Origin: Octopus vulgaris | Taxonomy: Eukaryota | Direction of reading: 5' to 3' | NCBI GenBank assembly: GCA_951406725.2 | Contig: OX597827.1 | Coordinates: 62,992,001-63,056,000 of the forward strand | Length of the DNA stretch: 64,000 nt | In this document: one piece after another, positions 12,023-61,510 of the stretch | Layout: the number at the start of each line of letters is the position of its first letter | How positions within the stretch are numbered: position 1 is the stretch's first letter | Position numbers and translations under genes: made by a program | Notes under the pieces: generated by a model | Database searches by the model: none | What the model was told of the DNA's origin: nothing | The model's input: the letters and a program-made list of their open reading frames with translations, nothing else

Positions 12023-12108
12023 ATGACAGCATTAGCCTGGGGGGTTAAATAACAACAATGAGGAGAATTTTTACACACTATTTTGCTTAGCTATGACGAT
12101 CAAACTAT

Positions 12109-15204: not shown

Positions 15205-15254
<50 letters not shown>

Positions 15255-15256
<2 letters not shown>

Positions 15257-15985
15257 CTTCAAGAGAGTTAGGGGTTGTGAGTCCAACCCACTAAGGGATA
15301 ATACCTATCCAATATACTGTTAATAGAATACCCAATTATTAAATAAACGAGTGTTTTTTATTGCATTGCAATTACATTATATAGTGTATTAAATGGCAGA
15401 AAGTAAAGAGATATTTTACCATTAAGTTATATTGGCAATAAGAAAATGGAGAAAAATTGTTGGTTCATCCACTTTAGGACATTAAAAATGTTAACTTATT
15501 TATTTATTAAACCGATAATTATAATAACATACATACATATAAGATGTAGATATGTATGTATATTTCAGTATATATAATTAATTATCTATAACCATATATG
15601 TATGTAAGTATATATATATATATATATATTCAAATGTGTGTGTATTTTGTTTCATACTTATATTTATATTTATTATTATTGTACTTTATAACTCCTGACG
15701 AAGCCTTGAGATATATACAAGTACCTCATTTTCAACTGCCTATTACCTCAATACACTTGACTAGGCAGAATGAGATGCTTTTATCTATGGGCTGAAACAG
15801 CTGTAAGTTATTTTAATAAATTATATTCATGTTTTTTTAATAATTACTTGTATTCTTATCTTATATGCATAGAATAATATGCTATATGTATGTATGTTAT
15901 TATAATTATCAGTTTAATAAATAAATAAGTTAACATGTTTAATGTCCTAAAGATGATAAACCAACTATTGTTCTCCTCCAATATA
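15255..15985. mobile_element. Penelope-like terminal remnant with inverted segment
   Basis: Starts at (TA)n; inverted repeat ~15455-15541 vs ~15883-15970; contains a hammerhead motif followed by AATAAA. Confidence 0.6.
15688..15811 (+). ncRNA. Minimal type-I hammerhead ribozyme motif
   Basis: AUAACU-C-CUGACGA-AGCC...GGCU-GAAAC-AGCU-GUA-AGUUAU; helix I AUAACU/AGUUAU, long helix II. Confidence 0.7.
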
Positions 15986-18529: not shown

Positions 18530-18590
<61 letters not shown>

Positions 18591-18665
18591 GGTACAATAA
18601 ACTCAGGGTGAATACTTGATAAATGTAAGCACCTGTATATGCCAGCTAGTAGCATAGGTGATAGG

Positions 18666-18982
18666 ATATATGCATCAAATGAAATAAATGAAAAACAGGA
18701 CACAAAGGATGTTGCGGTACATATGTTTCGGGCTTTATAGAACAACTTATTCTTACATCAATGCATAATCGACATAACAGATAGTTCAAAAGCCCTCTTC
18801 AGCCGCGTGCAATTGCTACACCAAAGACTTAGCAATTGCACGCGGCTGAAGAGGGCTTTTGAACTATCTGTTATGTCGATTATGCATTAATGTAAGAATA
18901 ATTTGTTCTATAAAGCCCGAAACATATGTACCTCAACATCCTTTGTGTCCTGTTTTTCATTTATTTTATTTGATACATATAT
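18666..18982. repeat. Long foldback (153 bp arms, 11 nt spacer), PLE-like
   Basis: 18666-18818 is the reverse complement of 18830-18982 with 5 mismatches by eye; right arm abuts (TA)n. Confidence 0.95.
18714..18806 (-). ncRNA. Minimal type-I hammerhead ribozyme motif (mirror copy at 18842-18934, +)
   Basis: GCGG-CUGAAGA-GGGCUUU...AAAGCCC-GAAAC-AUAU-GUA-CCGC. Confidence 0.8.
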
Positions 18983-19272
18983 ATATATATATATATCAAA
19001 AGTGAGTGTAAAGGGCTATATTATTCTGGCGCTTACCGTATTTTCTCTCAAGTTGATTTCAGATGCCGTCTAACCACACCGGTCCGTATATAGTACTCGA
19101 GCTACAAATGAGTTATTAGGCCCGGGTAACCTCTCTCGTTCGGTAATTCCATGTCTCCTGATCAACACTGCATGTGTTCCGTAGAGAAATTAATAACATT
19201 AATAATGATAAATACAATGGACATTTTTCATATCCGTAATTTTATTTAACACTTACTTGGAGCATATTTTCC

Positions 19273-19358
19273 AGACCTACATGTGTTTCAACTGCAGCAA
19301 CTGCACACTGTTGGATATGCAACCTAGCATCATGGTCGCTGCAGTTTCCTCAGTGTCC
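19273..19358 (-). ncRNA. Minimal type-I hammerhead ribozyme motif
   Basis: GGACA-CUGAGGA-AACUGCAGCGAC...GUUGCUGCAGUU-GAAAC-ACAU-GUA-GGUCU; 12 bp helix II; lies in a TA-flanked insert ~18997-19465. Confidence 0.7.
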
Positions 19359-19463
19359 TTCACTATAGACCGTTTCGAAATAAACTGAAGAAAACAATGA
19401 GCTCTTGATTTCTGCTTATAATTATATATGTTATTTTCTCCATGCTTCTAATAATTAGTAATG

Positions 19464-19534
<71 letters not shown>

Positions 19535-19677
19535 AAATAGAAAGATGAATAATCTTGTAGCAGATTAATCAAAAGTTTAACCGATACCTTGGTAGCAAAA
19601 ATCACAGCAGAAGACAGCACGGTTGGAGGTACAACCATATGGTGTTGCAACCGTGCGTTGGTGCGGATAATTGAAAT

Positions 19678-20131
19678 TAAAATATTATTGGTGAATTGAA
19701 GAAATGGAGCTGAACGAAGATTGAACAGAAATCGTTTTATTTCATTCTACACGTGTTTCGAAAGGCACAATTTACCAAAATCCGATTGAATAATGAGACC
19801 ATATTGTGTCTTTCTCTTCAGGAAGAAATAGGAAATCCGTTGGAAAAAACAAAAACAGAACAGAGGCGGAGCAAAACAAATCGAACTAGGCTCCTAAGTT
19901 TTGCCATGGGCTCTTAGGAGCCTACTTCGATTTGTTTTGCTCCGCCTCTGTTCTGTTTTTGTTTTTCCAACGGATTTCCTATTTCTTCCTGAAGAGAAAG
20001 ACACAATATGGTCTCATTATTCAATCGGATTTTGGTAAATTGTGCCTTTCGAAACACGTGTAGAATGAAATAAAACGATTTCTGTTCAATCTTCGTTCAG
20101 CTCCATTTCTTCAATTCACCAATAATATTTT

Positions 20132-20132
<1 letters not shown>
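19678..20132. repeat. Long foldback (~220 bp arms, 14 nt spacer), PLE-like
   Basis: 19678-19898 vs 19913-20132; about one mismatch and one indel by eye; flanked by (TA)n. Confidence 0.95.
19982..20070 (+). ncRNA. Minimal type-I hammerhead ribozyme motif (mirror copy at 19740-19828, -)
   Basis: UUUCUUC-CUGAAGA-GAAAGACACAAU...AUUGUGCCUUUC-GAAAC-ACGU-GUA-GAAUGAAA, immediately followed by AAUAAA. Confidence 0.8.
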
Positions 20133-20211
<79 letters not shown>

Positions 20212-20364
20212 TTTATATACAAAGAGAGAGGTTATGAGAGGTAATGGTGTCAATAAGACCCAAAGGTGTCAGGTAATGCTGAGTAAGTACTATGGATAGA
20301 GCATAGTTAACCTCCAGGTTCGGTGATTATGCCAACGTAGGTCATATATCAGCATGTGTATATA

Positions 20365-20775
20365 TAATTTTTTTACAAAATGGGATATAAAAACCAAGAC
20401 TGTGAAGATTTTAGAACATTTATAAATAGGTCTTTCAGCTGTTTCCTGAATATTTATTATATCCCTTCATCGGAGACGGTATGAGAAAATGGTTAAGCAA
20501 TAGTTAATTCAGATAAGATACGAAATAGAGAGTGAAGTGGAGGAATGAAAATAGATGTGAGATATGCGGGGATACTGCTTTTGTAGATCCATTATTTAGG
20601 CAAAATGGTATACATATAAGATTCCAATACTTTGTGAGTAAAATCCAATAGTATTTAAAATTGTCATTGTAAATTCCAATAGTATTGAAAGTTGGTTACT
20701 CCAAGTATAGAGTTTGTACATAGTGCTATTGAATCGAGGGTTTTAGTTAAATAAAACCCTCGATTCAATAGCACA
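20365..20775 (-). mobile_element. PLE-like terminal repeat family E, copy 1, with variant hammerhead (20430-20477)
   Basis: Homologous to 28115-28285 and 61155-61510; ends in a 23 bp perfect hairpin at 20723-20774. Confidence 0.7.
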
Positions 20776-20884
20776 ATATAGCAGGATGTCATAGCATCGA
20801 AATCAAAGATTTCCTTACGGAGACAGTGGTCATTAAAAAGCTGTCGAATTGGATTCCATCTTACTTTTGGCTATTTATTCTTTC

Positions 20885-20939
<55 letters not shown>

Positions 20940-28067: not shown

Positions 28068-28114
<47 letters not shown>

Positions 28115-28119
<5 letters not shown>

Positions 28120-28285
28120 AATTCTTTGCGTAATGAGATAAAAAACCAAGTTTTTGTAGATATTAGAGCATTTATAGATAGAAGGTCTTACAGCTGTTTC
28201 CAGGATATTTATTAATTATATCTCTTCATCGGAGACGGAGTGAGAGGATGGTTAAGTCATAGTTAGTTTAGATGTGATACAAAAT
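28115..28285 (-). mobile_element. PLE-like family E, copy 2, variant hammerhead 28185-28236
   Basis: GUCU-CCGAUGA-AGAGAUAU...AUAUCCUG-GAAAC-AGCU-GUA-AGAC; begins at (TA)n. Confidence 0.7.
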
Positions 28286-28290
28286 ATTTC

Positions 28291-48630: not shown

Positions 48631-48716
48631 TAGTTTCAAAATTTTGAAATATGTTTTGCTAAAATTGCTGTTTCTTTTCAGATATCACCAGAAAAAGGTA
48701 ATTAAAATCCATTAAA

Positions 48717-49690
48717 ATGACAGATACATCTGACTTTCATAGAGGTCAAATTGTAGGTGCTCATATGGTAGGCGTTAGCATAACAAAAACAGCCGAAATA
48801 TTTAGTGTATCAAGAAGTACTGTCTCGAAAGTAATGACAGCCTTTGAGAAAGAGGGAAAAACCTCCTCGTCGAAACAAAACTACGGAAGCAAACCAAAAC
48901 GGTCAGATAGAGATCGTTGGACTCTTACGCAAATTGTTTGAAAGGTTCACAAAAATACAGCTCCCAAAATTACTGCAGAACTTAAGGACCACCTCTAGAA
49001 CTCAGTTTCCACAAAAACTGTTCGCCAGGAGCTGCACAAACAATCGTTGCAGTGTATAGAGTGGAGTAAAAACCTACAGAATTGGTTCCTAGAGTAGTGG
49101 AAGAATGTTATATTCTCGGACGAGTCCTCCTTTACCTTATTTCCGACCACCGGCCGAGTATATGTATGGAGAAAACCAAAAGAAGCATTTGACCCAGACT
49201 GCCTTCTTCCAATTGTTAAACATGGAGGAGGATCTGTGATGATCTGGGTGGGGGCTATATCATGAAAATTTGCCGGCCCATTCGTTTGACTTCATGGCAG
49301 AATTAATAATCAAGACTACTTATGCATTTTATGCCATAAAATTCTTTCTATGGTTGCGGAACTCTTTCCGGAGGGAAATGCAATCTTTCAGGATTATAAT
49401 GCAACAATTCACACAGCTCAATTTAGTACTGAATGGCACGAGGAATATTCTAGTGAAGTTGAACACAATAACTGGCCACTACAAGCCCCAGATCTCAATA
49501 TTGTTGAACATTTATGGTGTATTTTTGAAAAACGATTAAGGAGTCGATATCTTCTACCACAACACTGGAAACTGTTTTAGCAGAAAAATGGACTAAAGTT
49601 CCTTTGGAAACAATTCAAACTTTGTACGAGTCCATACCTAGCAGAATTCAAGCCGTAAATACTACCAAAGGCGGTCCTACCCCAAATCAA
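48717..49690 (+). pseudogene. Tc1-family transposase pseudogene (DD36E spacing)
   Basis: HTH (RGQIVGA...TAEIFSVSRSTVSKV), VIFSDES, VKHGGGSVMIW, FQDYNATIH, WPLQAPDLNIVEHLW; stops and frameshifts. Confidence 0.9.
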
Positions 49691-53909: not shown

Positions 53910-55358
53910 AGATAAACTACCTGTATCAACTTGCTATAAAAGCAGGTAGTAATCTTGTACTTATCCTTAGTTTTAGTTTTGAAAATTACAGTTCGATTTT
54001 AACAGAATTTTTTCAAAGCTATAATAGAAGTGACAAAGCAGCATATTCGGAATATTTTGCTTTATGAGTACAACAAAAGTAGCAATGGAACGGAATGTGT
54101 GAGGAATATTAAATGCAGAATATGGGGATTGGACAATAAGGGTAAGCCAGCGTCAAGGGTGGTTCCAGAAATTTCGAGCCGGAAACTACAGCCTAGAAAA
54201 CGAGCCTCGTGCTAGATCTGTAGAGCTTGACGACCACGTTCTGCAAATCCTGGTGGAATAAAGCCCCGTCGTAACTTGTTTCTTTACTATCCACAAGGGG
54301 CTAAACAGAGGAGACAAACAAGGACAGACAGACGGTTTAAGTCGATTATATCGACCCCAGTGCGTAACTGGTACTTAATTTACCGACCCCGAAAGGATGA
54401 AAGGCAAAGTCGACCACGGCGGTATTTGAGCCCAGAACGTAACGGCAGACGAAATAGCGCTCAGCATTTCGCCCAGCGTGCTAACGTTTCTGTCAGCCTC
54501 GTCGTAACTGTTGAGGAACTAGCAGAGAAGCTTGGATTTCGTCATTCAACTATTCATCGACACCTGTGTACCATCGGAAAAGTCAGTAAATTGGGTCAAT
54601 ACATTCCTTACAAACTTTCCGAATCTAATGGCGCGCAGAGAGTGAATGTGTGCTCTTCTGTGTTCACGTCTCATGAATGCACCATTTCTGAACCCAATAG
54701 TGACTGGTGGTGAGAAAAGCATTCTCTATAAAAATATGAAGTACCGAAGACAGTGGGTAGGGAAAGGAAAAAGACCCACACCCTAGGCTACAGAAGGTCT
54801 TCACCCAAGTAAGGTGTTCTTACCTCTTTGGTGGCATATGAAAAGTTTAGTCGACTTTGAACTTTTAAACCCAAATCAAACGATAACAAAGAAGATCTAC
54901 TTTGAGCATTTTAGCAGCTAAAGTCAGCGCTAGAAGAAAAACGACCATCTTTGGCTTCAAGACAAAAGGTGTCCTTCCATCAGGATAATGCTTGGCCACA
55001 TACACTGACGATGCCATTCCAAAGGCTTGAGCAGTTTGAATGGGAAACAATGCTCGACCCACCATATTCACTGGACATTGCCCCATCAGATTATCATTTA
55101 TTCTGCAATCGGCAAAATTATTTGGTCGGAAAAAATACAGATTCTGTCGATGAGGTAAGAACAATGCTGCAGGAGTATTTTTCCTCACTGAGAAGTGAAT
55201 TTTGGAAGAGGGGCCTTGCAAGTCTACCAGATAGATGGAAGAGCGTGGTAGAATGTGAAGGAGAGTATATTTTGGACTAAAAATGAACTTTATTTACCTT
55301 AATTTTGAAAAATAAAAGAAGAATAAAGAAAACCGCATTATTTATAGGATGACCCAAT
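53910..55358 (+). pseudogene. Mariner (DD34D) transposon remnant
   Basis: HIRNILLYEY, TVEELAEKLGFRHSTIHRHL, HQDNAWPHT...PPYSLDIAPSDYHLF (34-residue spacing); right end CCGCATTATTTATAGGATGACCCAA|TA; left TIR not found. Confidence 0.9.
54277..54499 (-). mobile_element. SINE family B inserted in the mariner transposase
   Basis: TSD CGTCGTAACT at 54267-54276 and 54500-54509. Confidence 0.9.
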
Positions 55359-61123: not shown

Positions 61124-61154
<31 letters not shown>

Positions 61155-61158
<4 letters not shown>

Positions 61159-61510
61159 TTTTTTTTTCAGAATGAGAAAAATATCCAAGGCTGTGAAGTA
61201 TTTTAGAACATTTATAAATAGAAGGTCTTACAGCTGTTTCCGGGATATTTATTATATCCCTTCATCGGAGACGGTGTGTGAAAATAGTTAAGCAGTAGTT
61301 AATTTAGATAAGATATGAAATAGAGAGTGAAGTGGAGGAATGAAAATAGATGTGAGATATGCAGGGATATTGCATTTGTAGATCCATTATTTAGGCAGAA
61401 TTGTATACATATAAGATTCCAATACCTTGTGAGTAAATTCCAATAGTATTTAAAATTGGTCATTCCAAGTATAGTGTTTGTACAAAGTGCTATTGAATCG
61501 AGGGTTTATC
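61155..61510 (-). mobile_element. PLE-like family E, copy 3, variant hammerhead 61225-61272
   Basis: GUCU-CCGAUGA-A-GGGAUAU-AAUAA-AUAUCCC-G-GAAAC-AGCU-GUA-AGAC; begins at (TA)n. Confidence 0.75.

Follow-up and report, generated by a model that had tools for sequence, protein, structure and literature searches.

Head-to-head hammerhead repeats in an Octopus vulgaris foldback: anatomy, repeat family and candidate route of insertion

Within a window of 64,000 nucleotides of Octopus vulgaris DNA (contig OX597827.1), we analyzed a foldback with a hammerhead motif in each arm. Our preferred reading, held with good though not high confidence, is that it consists of two head-to-head fragments of a high-copy hammerhead repeat that likely corresponds to a Penelope-like element (PLE) terminal repeat (pLTR), and likely arose from two reverse transcription (RT) events primed on opposite strands of the target. 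We observed the foldback anatomy, the high copy number, a start shared by sibling copies at +1 (position 19897), and two 3' ends, one at +236 that recurs in the family and, in this copy, a longer one at +382. An insertion of PLE type is highly probable and, granted such an insertion, a two-primer route is slightly favored over other routes. The class assignment, likely on the anatomy of the repeat ends, has no RT or GIY-YIG gene linked to it, and we withhold assignment to a named clade. This insertion type is already known, and a single locus of this kind is ordinary for a PLE-rich animal genome.

Anatomy and age of the foldback

The inverted arm (19678 to 19898) and the direct arm (19913 to 20132) match at 219 of 221 positions. 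The near-perfect 220-bp foldback proposed in the initial annotation was thus confirmed, as were its roughly two differences between arms, which are one mismatch (19886 versus 19925) and one indel (A6 at 19844 to 19849 versus T5). The extent given there, 19678 to 20132, describes a real foldback but falls short of the full unit, which spans 19532 to 20132, the left arm being 146 nt longer owing to a tail that runs up to a (TA)n tract. Tracts of (TA)n abut both ends of this unit (Table 1), and a target-site duplication is unreadable within such flanks. The window as a whole is microsatellite-rich animal DNA containing 77 (TA)n tracts and SINE-like repeats of octopus appearance. We number the unit from A19897 as +1. 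A 7-bp hairpin lies at 19907 to 19924 (+11 to +28), and the inverted arm stops at +17, at the hairpin loop.

Table 1. Features of the foldback unit and its flanks
Feature	Coordinates	Strand	Remarks
(TA)n tract, left target	19465..19530		
Tail, inverted arm only, +237 to +382; repeat-family sequence	19532..19677	-	Family contigs cover the tail in 4/4 runs; no protein match
Inverted arm, 5'-truncated at +17	19678..19898	-	
Type I hammerhead, minus copy	19739..19829	-	Core box 19821-19815; predicted cut after 19748
AGTTC at +28..+32, left-arm allele	19883..19887	-	Fits Drosophila DPE consensus RGWYV (consensus from PMC5580651)
Apparent spacer, +1..+16 of direct arm	19897..19912	+	5' start common to sibling copies (junction tables)
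AG common to both arms	19897..19898	+	2-nt microhomology (junction tables)
Direct arm, +17..+236	19913..20132	+	ACTTC at +28..+32, a DPE mismatch
Type I hammerhead, plus copy; palindromic ACACGUGU	19981..20071	+	12-bp helix II, 31-nt loop; predicted cut after 20062; predicted dimer-dependent
AATAAA	20069..20074	+	6 nt behind predicted cut
(TA)n tract, right target	20136..20203		

Each arm carries sequence that is absent from the other, +1 to +16 in the right arm and +237 to +382 in the left. Since neither arm simply duplicates the other, we regard a library chimera as unlikely, and a foldback artifact of library or assembly as very improbable overall. Such a chimera would copy one arm together with its flank, whereas here each arm has family sequence missing from the other, the spacer is family sequence in right-arm orientation, and two sites distinguish the arms. 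Comparable junctions, at least 14 of them from sibling copies, are also listed among contigs of three of four public sequencing runs (X1, X3, and X9, with none among those listed for X7). The one point in favor of a chimera is that the exact junction of this copy is bridged by none of the 32 contig pieces listed (3565 further pieces lie outside that list).

The insertion had been described as young or homogenized. Its youth is supported by the 2 differences in 221 positions and by the similarity of family copies, with 1115 of 1331 aligned X1 contigs at least 95% alike. Homogenization, by contrast, is not needed, because a PLE-type insertion makes the arms near-identical from the start. Under a published O. 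vulgaris calibration (JC 0.09 equals 25 My; PMC13282606), the two differences would correspond to an age of roughly 1 My, provided that the arms started out identical and that the calibration holds for them. The A6/T5 indel is a common variant of the family, at 22 to 59% of depth in DNA-type runs, and therefore may predate the insertion.

The repeat family in public sequencing runs

The stretch occurs, whole or in part, in 20 of the 24 runs listed, drawn from 8 studies and three organism labels plus one small-share row; a wastewater-metagenome row (share 0.14) was left out of the evidence. Contigs of four runs (X1, X3, X7, and X9) were aligned to positions 19532 to 19940. Three DNA-type runs of three organism labels gave 1331, 1246, and 914 aligned contigs, and 47 aligned in the run guessed to be RNA (X9). 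That RNA label is a guess and contigs carry no information on ends, strand, or level; we did not take them as expression. Summed depth reached 0.5 to 1.4 million, versus 22 to 49 for single-junction contigs in the same DNA-type runs. On this contrast we place the family, roughly, at thousands of copies or more, although depth does not equal copy number.

Fourteen distinct junctions were listed. Their inverted arms end at 19578, 19582, 19609, 19617, 19653, 19716 (twice), 19740, 19749, 19753, 19829, 19832, 19848, and 19854. Five of these breaks fall within the tail (19578 to 19653), and the inverted arms concerned therefore began beyond +236. The direct arms start at 19896 to 19898 in 12 of the 14 listed and at 19903 and 19909 in the other two, a clustering with a binomial p of 6e-8 if starts were uniform over the 17 visible positions; only junctions whose direct arm begins close to the spacer are readily detectable, and strand-changing joints lie outside the listing. 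A start near +39 is seen in at least one sibling (X3, loose end at 19876). Loose ends also revealed non-inverted copies in which a conserved stretch, with AAAC as its last letters, precedes 19897, and the apparent spacer is therefore the 5' end of the right arm. These genomic upstream letters of the family are absent from all eight start-cluster junctions, among those listed, for which the letters between the arms are known. At the other end of the direct arm, the boundary with (TA)n is a recurrent end of the family (TA loose ends before 19678/19682 in runs X7 and X3). Contigs are mostly 60 to 100 nt, which puts the 3' ends of sibling direct arms out of reach.

The scatter of these junctions largely refutes the reading of the foldback as a MITE or other DNA-transposon palindrome with a chance hammerhead-like motif, to which we give very little weight. 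Such an element would be compatible with the long inverted repeats, the flanking TA, and the high copy number, and terminal repeats alone can constitute MITEs (PMC8969392). The arms are unequal, however, in place of the fixed, symmetric terminal inverted repeats and constant interior of a MITE, and 13 different inverted-arm breakpoints occur among the 14 junctions listed. Nor does the hammerhead look accidental, as its descriptor is rarely matched by chance and unrelated families in the window have the same motif and anatomy.

Neither this repeat family nor a fixed promoter-start junction in PLE inversions was described in the open literature consulted, as judged from listings and selected passages. 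Among the hammerhead and octopus papers listed, PMC8557442 was the only one on PLEs, and its accessible text held none of the motifs searched for the foldback family. Exact searches of its supplement with motifs of 10 to 15 nt gave no match to the foldback or to neighboring families, although line breaks in that file could hide matches; the foldback repeat was absent from the consensus sequences searched there, and its hammerhead differs from the Hydra-1_oBim hammerhead listed. There was no match among the published Naiad, Chlamys, and Hydra consensus files, and exact pattern scans returned nothing from metagenome, viral, or genome contig collections.

Element class and route of insertion

In published PLE insertions, the 5' end bears an inverted copy that is itself 5'-truncated, only one end has a tail, the targets are (TA)n, and a hammerhead lies close to the 3' end (PMC8557442, PMC3846280); such features, with hammerheads on both strands, are described as standard for the group (PMC8557442, PMC8969392). 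Truncated PLEs have opposite-strand hammerheads 100 to 700 bp apart, and PLE hammerheads have a palindromic helix III (PMC4209133, published in 2014). The foldback has a type I hammerhead in a terminal repeat, an inverted copy, 5'-truncated and attached at the 5' end, a 146-nt tail confined to one end, and an AT-rich/(TA)n target. One-arm-only tails recur in all three such foldbacks of the window, at 80, 146, and about 194 nt. The closest parallel is with EN+ PLEs (Penelope/Poseidon, Neptune, and Hydra; e.g., Pen2a_Av and Penelope-13_HM), which share the head-to-head inverted copy, a terminal repeat of about 200 bp, the one-sided tail, the (TA)n target, and hammerheads on both strands near the ends. 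Unlike them, the foldback has no ORF between its repeats, and we count its tail of 146 nt, versus 30 to 40 nt published, against the PLE assignment.

Pfam searches of 149 window frames (146 of 214 filtered open frames plus three added) gave no RT or GIY-YIG match; the only matches above threshold were transposase-type DDE/HTH domains at 48702 to 49577 and 54003 to 54212. Sub-threshold matches to Steroid_dh and KwaB (tail frame, E 0.009) were taken as chance. For a 70-amino-acid open frame across the tail, no homolog appeared among longer proteins, a weak test, and the best Atlas score was 0.78.

Since no RT or endonuclease gene was found linked to the repeat, a non-autonomous, retrozyme-like unit is a serious though less probable alternative. 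On this reading the repeat is a monomer of about 396 nt, akin to non-LTR retrozymes, that would also form head-to-tail arrays, pass through circular RNA by way of the hammerhead, and use a PLE enzyme in trans, the tail being the rest of the monomer and not the start of an ORF. Where the far end of the tail overlaps the 5'-most sequence seen upstream of +1 (X1), 11 of 13 letters match, including the TA target, a score reached by 66 to 283 of 5000 controls. This overlap is weak (p 0.013 to 0.057), however, and depends on the end of a three-contig consensus. The tail shows no coding signal and carries family indels, mussel retrozymes measure 350 to 390 bp (PMC7229834), and animal retrozymes derive from pLTRs (10.64898/2026.07.22.740005). 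Like the retrozymes of mussel, coral, axolotl, and Xenopus, the family has a type I hammerhead, low GC content, a possible unit of about 400 nt, and contigs in runs guessed to be RNA. Unlike them, the foldback is arranged head to head and not head to tail, no tandem copy or array was found in the window, the unit is weakly self-paired (linear +17 to +382, z -1.24), and the hammerhead is of PLE type, with a long helix II and a weak helix I, not canonical.

Returning to the two-primer route, its steps would run as follows. An internal Pol II promoter (initiator-like CAGTT with a DPE-like motif at +28) would give a capped RNA from +1, and the PLE RT-endonuclease would nick both strands of the TA tract. 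One strand would prime cDNA at +236 and be extended to the 5' end of the RNA; the other would prime at the distal site, +382, and stop variably, in this copy at +17. The two cDNA 3' ends would then anneal through AG/CT and be filled in. Both arms carry sequence on either side of the hammerhead cut site, and the templates were therefore uncut or religated; cleavage by the ribozyme would require two RNAs in a dimer, perhaps assisted by protein. In an anole PLE, both strands are cleaved and extended, RT begins at two internal sites that set the limits of the tail, and uncleaved RNA is preferred (PMC11167929). The foldback resembles this Anolis Poseidon element (PAc), as studied in vitro, in having two 3' ends behind the hammerhead, an AT-rich target, and copies spanning the cut site. 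It differs in that the PAc ORF starts inside the hammerhead and the PAc tail is short, whereas the foldback has no established ORF start. Two-primer synthesis appears to be the simplest route, consistent with the anole element and with the 5 of 14 inverted arms that end in the tail.

The start common to sibling copies likely marks the 5' end of an RNA. Its context, C-A+1-GTT, is close to the initiator (Inr) TCA+1GTY, a Drosophila consensus (PMC5580651). The pLTR of D. virilis Penelope contains an internal promoter of Inr/DPE type (PMC2377424), and the repeat here combines an Inr-like start with RGWYV at +28 in the allele of one arm only, AGTTC at +28 to +32 on the left versus ACTTC on the right. 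In the window, RGWYV follows at exactly +28 after only 3 of 595 CAKTY sites, although the match was noticed after the fact. We count it against a promoter that the arm bearing +1 carries the DPE-breaking allele ACTTC, and the promoter of this copy may be weakened. Among the listed junctions whose letters are known, 7 of 8 have a G just before the start, and an extra G is expected from copying of the cap (PMC9341517). We nevertheless downgraded this as a strong sign of a cap, since four of the seven (starts at 19898) are explicable by snap-back on the nearby CCATGG; for starts at A, a G precedes in 3 of 4 (p 0.02 to 0.11). The extra G is best called suggestive.

According to PMC8557442, PMC11167929, and PMC3846280, how inverted PLE structures originate has yet to be settled. 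Self-priming within the same element class is the published hypothesis for head-to-head PLE repeats, with an antisense template (Arkhipova et al. 2013, PMC3846280), and has also been published for PLE tails (PMC8557442). Here a single cDNA, or an antisense template, would fold back or jump to form a hairpin, and an endonuclease would trim one arm at +236 on integration. We think this less probable but well worth weighing. Only one of the listed variable sites of the family distinguishes the two arms, and a single arm haplotype fits one template as well as two, so that self-priming accounts for it equally well; CATG or ATG letters at three junctions also resemble short snap-back synthesis on CCATGG. 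On the other hand, self-priming requires the extra trimming step, as the arm with +1 lacks the tail present on the inverted arm. An antisense template would leave it unexplained that the start coincides with sense-strand Inr/DPE spacing, and two RT start sites alone account for the tail in vitro (PMC11167929).

The two-primer route has a precedent of sorts outside the PLEs. In L1 twin priming, a second primer from the other target strand yields an inverted segment joined by microhomology. The foldback would share the opposite-strand second primer, the inverted segment, and the microhomology joint, but here both priming sites would be fixed and internal, and the duplicated overlap would produce a palindrome. 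Papers listed for Penelope and twin priming included none on a PLE mechanism, as judged by title or the start of the abstract. A broader and more tentative proposal, less probable than the reading of this single copy, is that twin priming on a capped sense RNA, from two fixed internal sites, gives rise to head-to-head Penelope palindromes in general. One of the cDNAs would reach the cap at the Inr/DPE promoter, the cap being copied as an extra G, and the other would start from the tail and stop anywhere. The family, with thousands of such junctions, would then perhaps be a promoter-bearing monomer of about 396 nt linking retrozymes to PLE insertion. If true, twin priming on capped RNA would replace the antisense self-priming hypothesis and explain the polarity of the tail. 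A young and very abundant family offers many natural junctions that can be counted to address the origin of PLE inversions, and its common start, two 3' ends, and tail polarity yield predictions that separate two-primer synthesis from self-priming by means of the host assembly alone.

Hammerhead folding and neighboring elements

The hammerhead of the direct arm comprises CTGAAGA at 19989 to 19995, GAAA, CACGTG, and TA, with A20062 as H17. It has the core CUGANGA/GAAA/NUH and helices I to III of a type I hammerhead; the A.C mismatch in helix II pairs 20001 with 20045, and helix I consists of UUC/GAA, a U bulge, and UUUC/GAAA (3+5-bp, bulged). Its mirror on the minus strand has H17 at 19748, and the two hammerheads point outward. 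The initial annotation, which named no element class, had described this anatomy correctly, from the intact core and the 12-bp helix II with one mismatch to the large loop, the palindrome, and the bulged helix I, and AATAAA does stand directly behind the predicted cut. No AATAAA was found behind the cut on the sense strand of the family at 18666 to 18982. A strict descriptor with a palindromic helix III gave five matches in the window versus two in total in 200 block shuffles. The hammerhead region alone folds no better than shuffles (z 0.23). Rfam reported no hammerhead at gathering score in the whole window, and at E of 10 or less between 18580 and 20900 it returned generic hairpins below gathering scores and no hammerhead family; long-loop hammerheads of the foldback kind are thus missed by Rfam. 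Relaxed matches at 19158, 39184, 43144, 50156, 37239, and 3428 were set aside as weak, as was one at 12093 that coincides in part with the end of a repeat present many times in the window.

The motif is close to the PLE hammerhead variants of Cervera and de la Pena (2014, PMC4209133), which are likewise type I with a large helix II, a short helix I, a G10.1-C11.1 pair, a palindromic 15.2-16.2/loop 3, a predicted dimer, and opposite-strand pairs 100 to 700 bp apart. It differs from those variants, as far as the accessible text describes them, in its helix II (12 bp and a 31-nt loop versus 6 to 8 bp), in having no extra nucleotide between A9 and G10.1, and in being missed by the Rfam models.

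Helix III has only 2 bp in the monomer. When two copies were co-folded without constraints, the minimum-energy form was a double hammerhead (-40.1 versus 2 x -14.8 kcal/mol), with a predicted 8-bp intermolecular helix III. The two copies of the foldback are unable to form this dimer within one RNA, because they lie on opposite strands. Folding predictions for a read-through RNA give a 222-bp hairpin (-383.7 kcal/mol) with both hammerheads buried inside it, and in a transcript of +1 to +236 the hammerhead helices have pairing probabilities of about 0.01 or less, which predicts misfolding. Metazoan PLE hammerheads cleave weakly, as dimers (PMC4209133). Dimeric cleavage in vitro is plausible from these predictions, and in vivo ribozyme activity of this copy appears doubtful. 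The suggestion that this copy is the best candidate for an active ribozyme in the window is doubtful and, as stated, unsupported, given the opposite strands, the 222-bp hairpin, the presence in both arms of sequence across the cut site, and other hammerheads nearby that are just as intact. Four neighboring hammerheads are likewise predicted to form dimers; the same palindromic 8-bp dimer helix is seen in three hammerheads of the window (18802, minus; 15695, plus; and the core variant at 61268, minus), and one of the four has a 6-bp helix.

Between 18586 and 20886, four different hammerhead families adjoin one another with (TA)n between each, and this side-by-side arrangement suggests repeated insertion into one microsatellite. 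The first, at 18586 to 18982, is an unrelated head-to-head hammerhead pair whose arms (18666 to 18818 and 18830 to 18982) match at 148 of 153 positions; it has the palindrome ACATATGT, an 80-nt tail on one arm, and a (TA)n setting, an anatomy like that of the 19532 to 20132 unit. A further family on the minus strand at 18998 to 19465 has CTGAGGA at 19353, a 9-bp helix II, and GAAA-CACATG-TA. Its palindrome has likely been lost to decay at CpG, and an initiator-like TCAGTT lies about 30 nt upstream. Another family, with the core variant CCGAUGA (C at position 4) in all three of its copies, lies on the minus strand at 20204 to 20886, 28109 to 28286, and 61151 to 61507. Its palindrome ACAGCTGT is intact in two of the three; two copies end near a common 3' point at (TA)n, and the third is about 155 nt longer. 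A small foldback at 20717 to 20780 lies within the copy at 20204 to 20886.

Farther away, 15254 to 15976 holds an older head-to-head insertion with a plus-strand hammerhead at 15695 (a 90-nt helix II region), an inverted arm at 15448 to 15541 (87 of 94 matches), and a tail of about 194 nt. Upstream of its ribozyme stand TCAGT and a GTAAGT donor-like site, which would suggest a promoter and an intron. At 2581 to 2708, a 128-bp imperfect foldback centered on a (TA)n tract, with TAAAAGAG repeats, resembles a different repeat end, and no hammerhead was found in it. The transposase-type domains noted above mark Tc1/mariner remnants (HTH_23 and DDE_3 in the first, HTH_48 in the second), and a further transposase-like frame, judged by eye, occupies 54915 to 55277.
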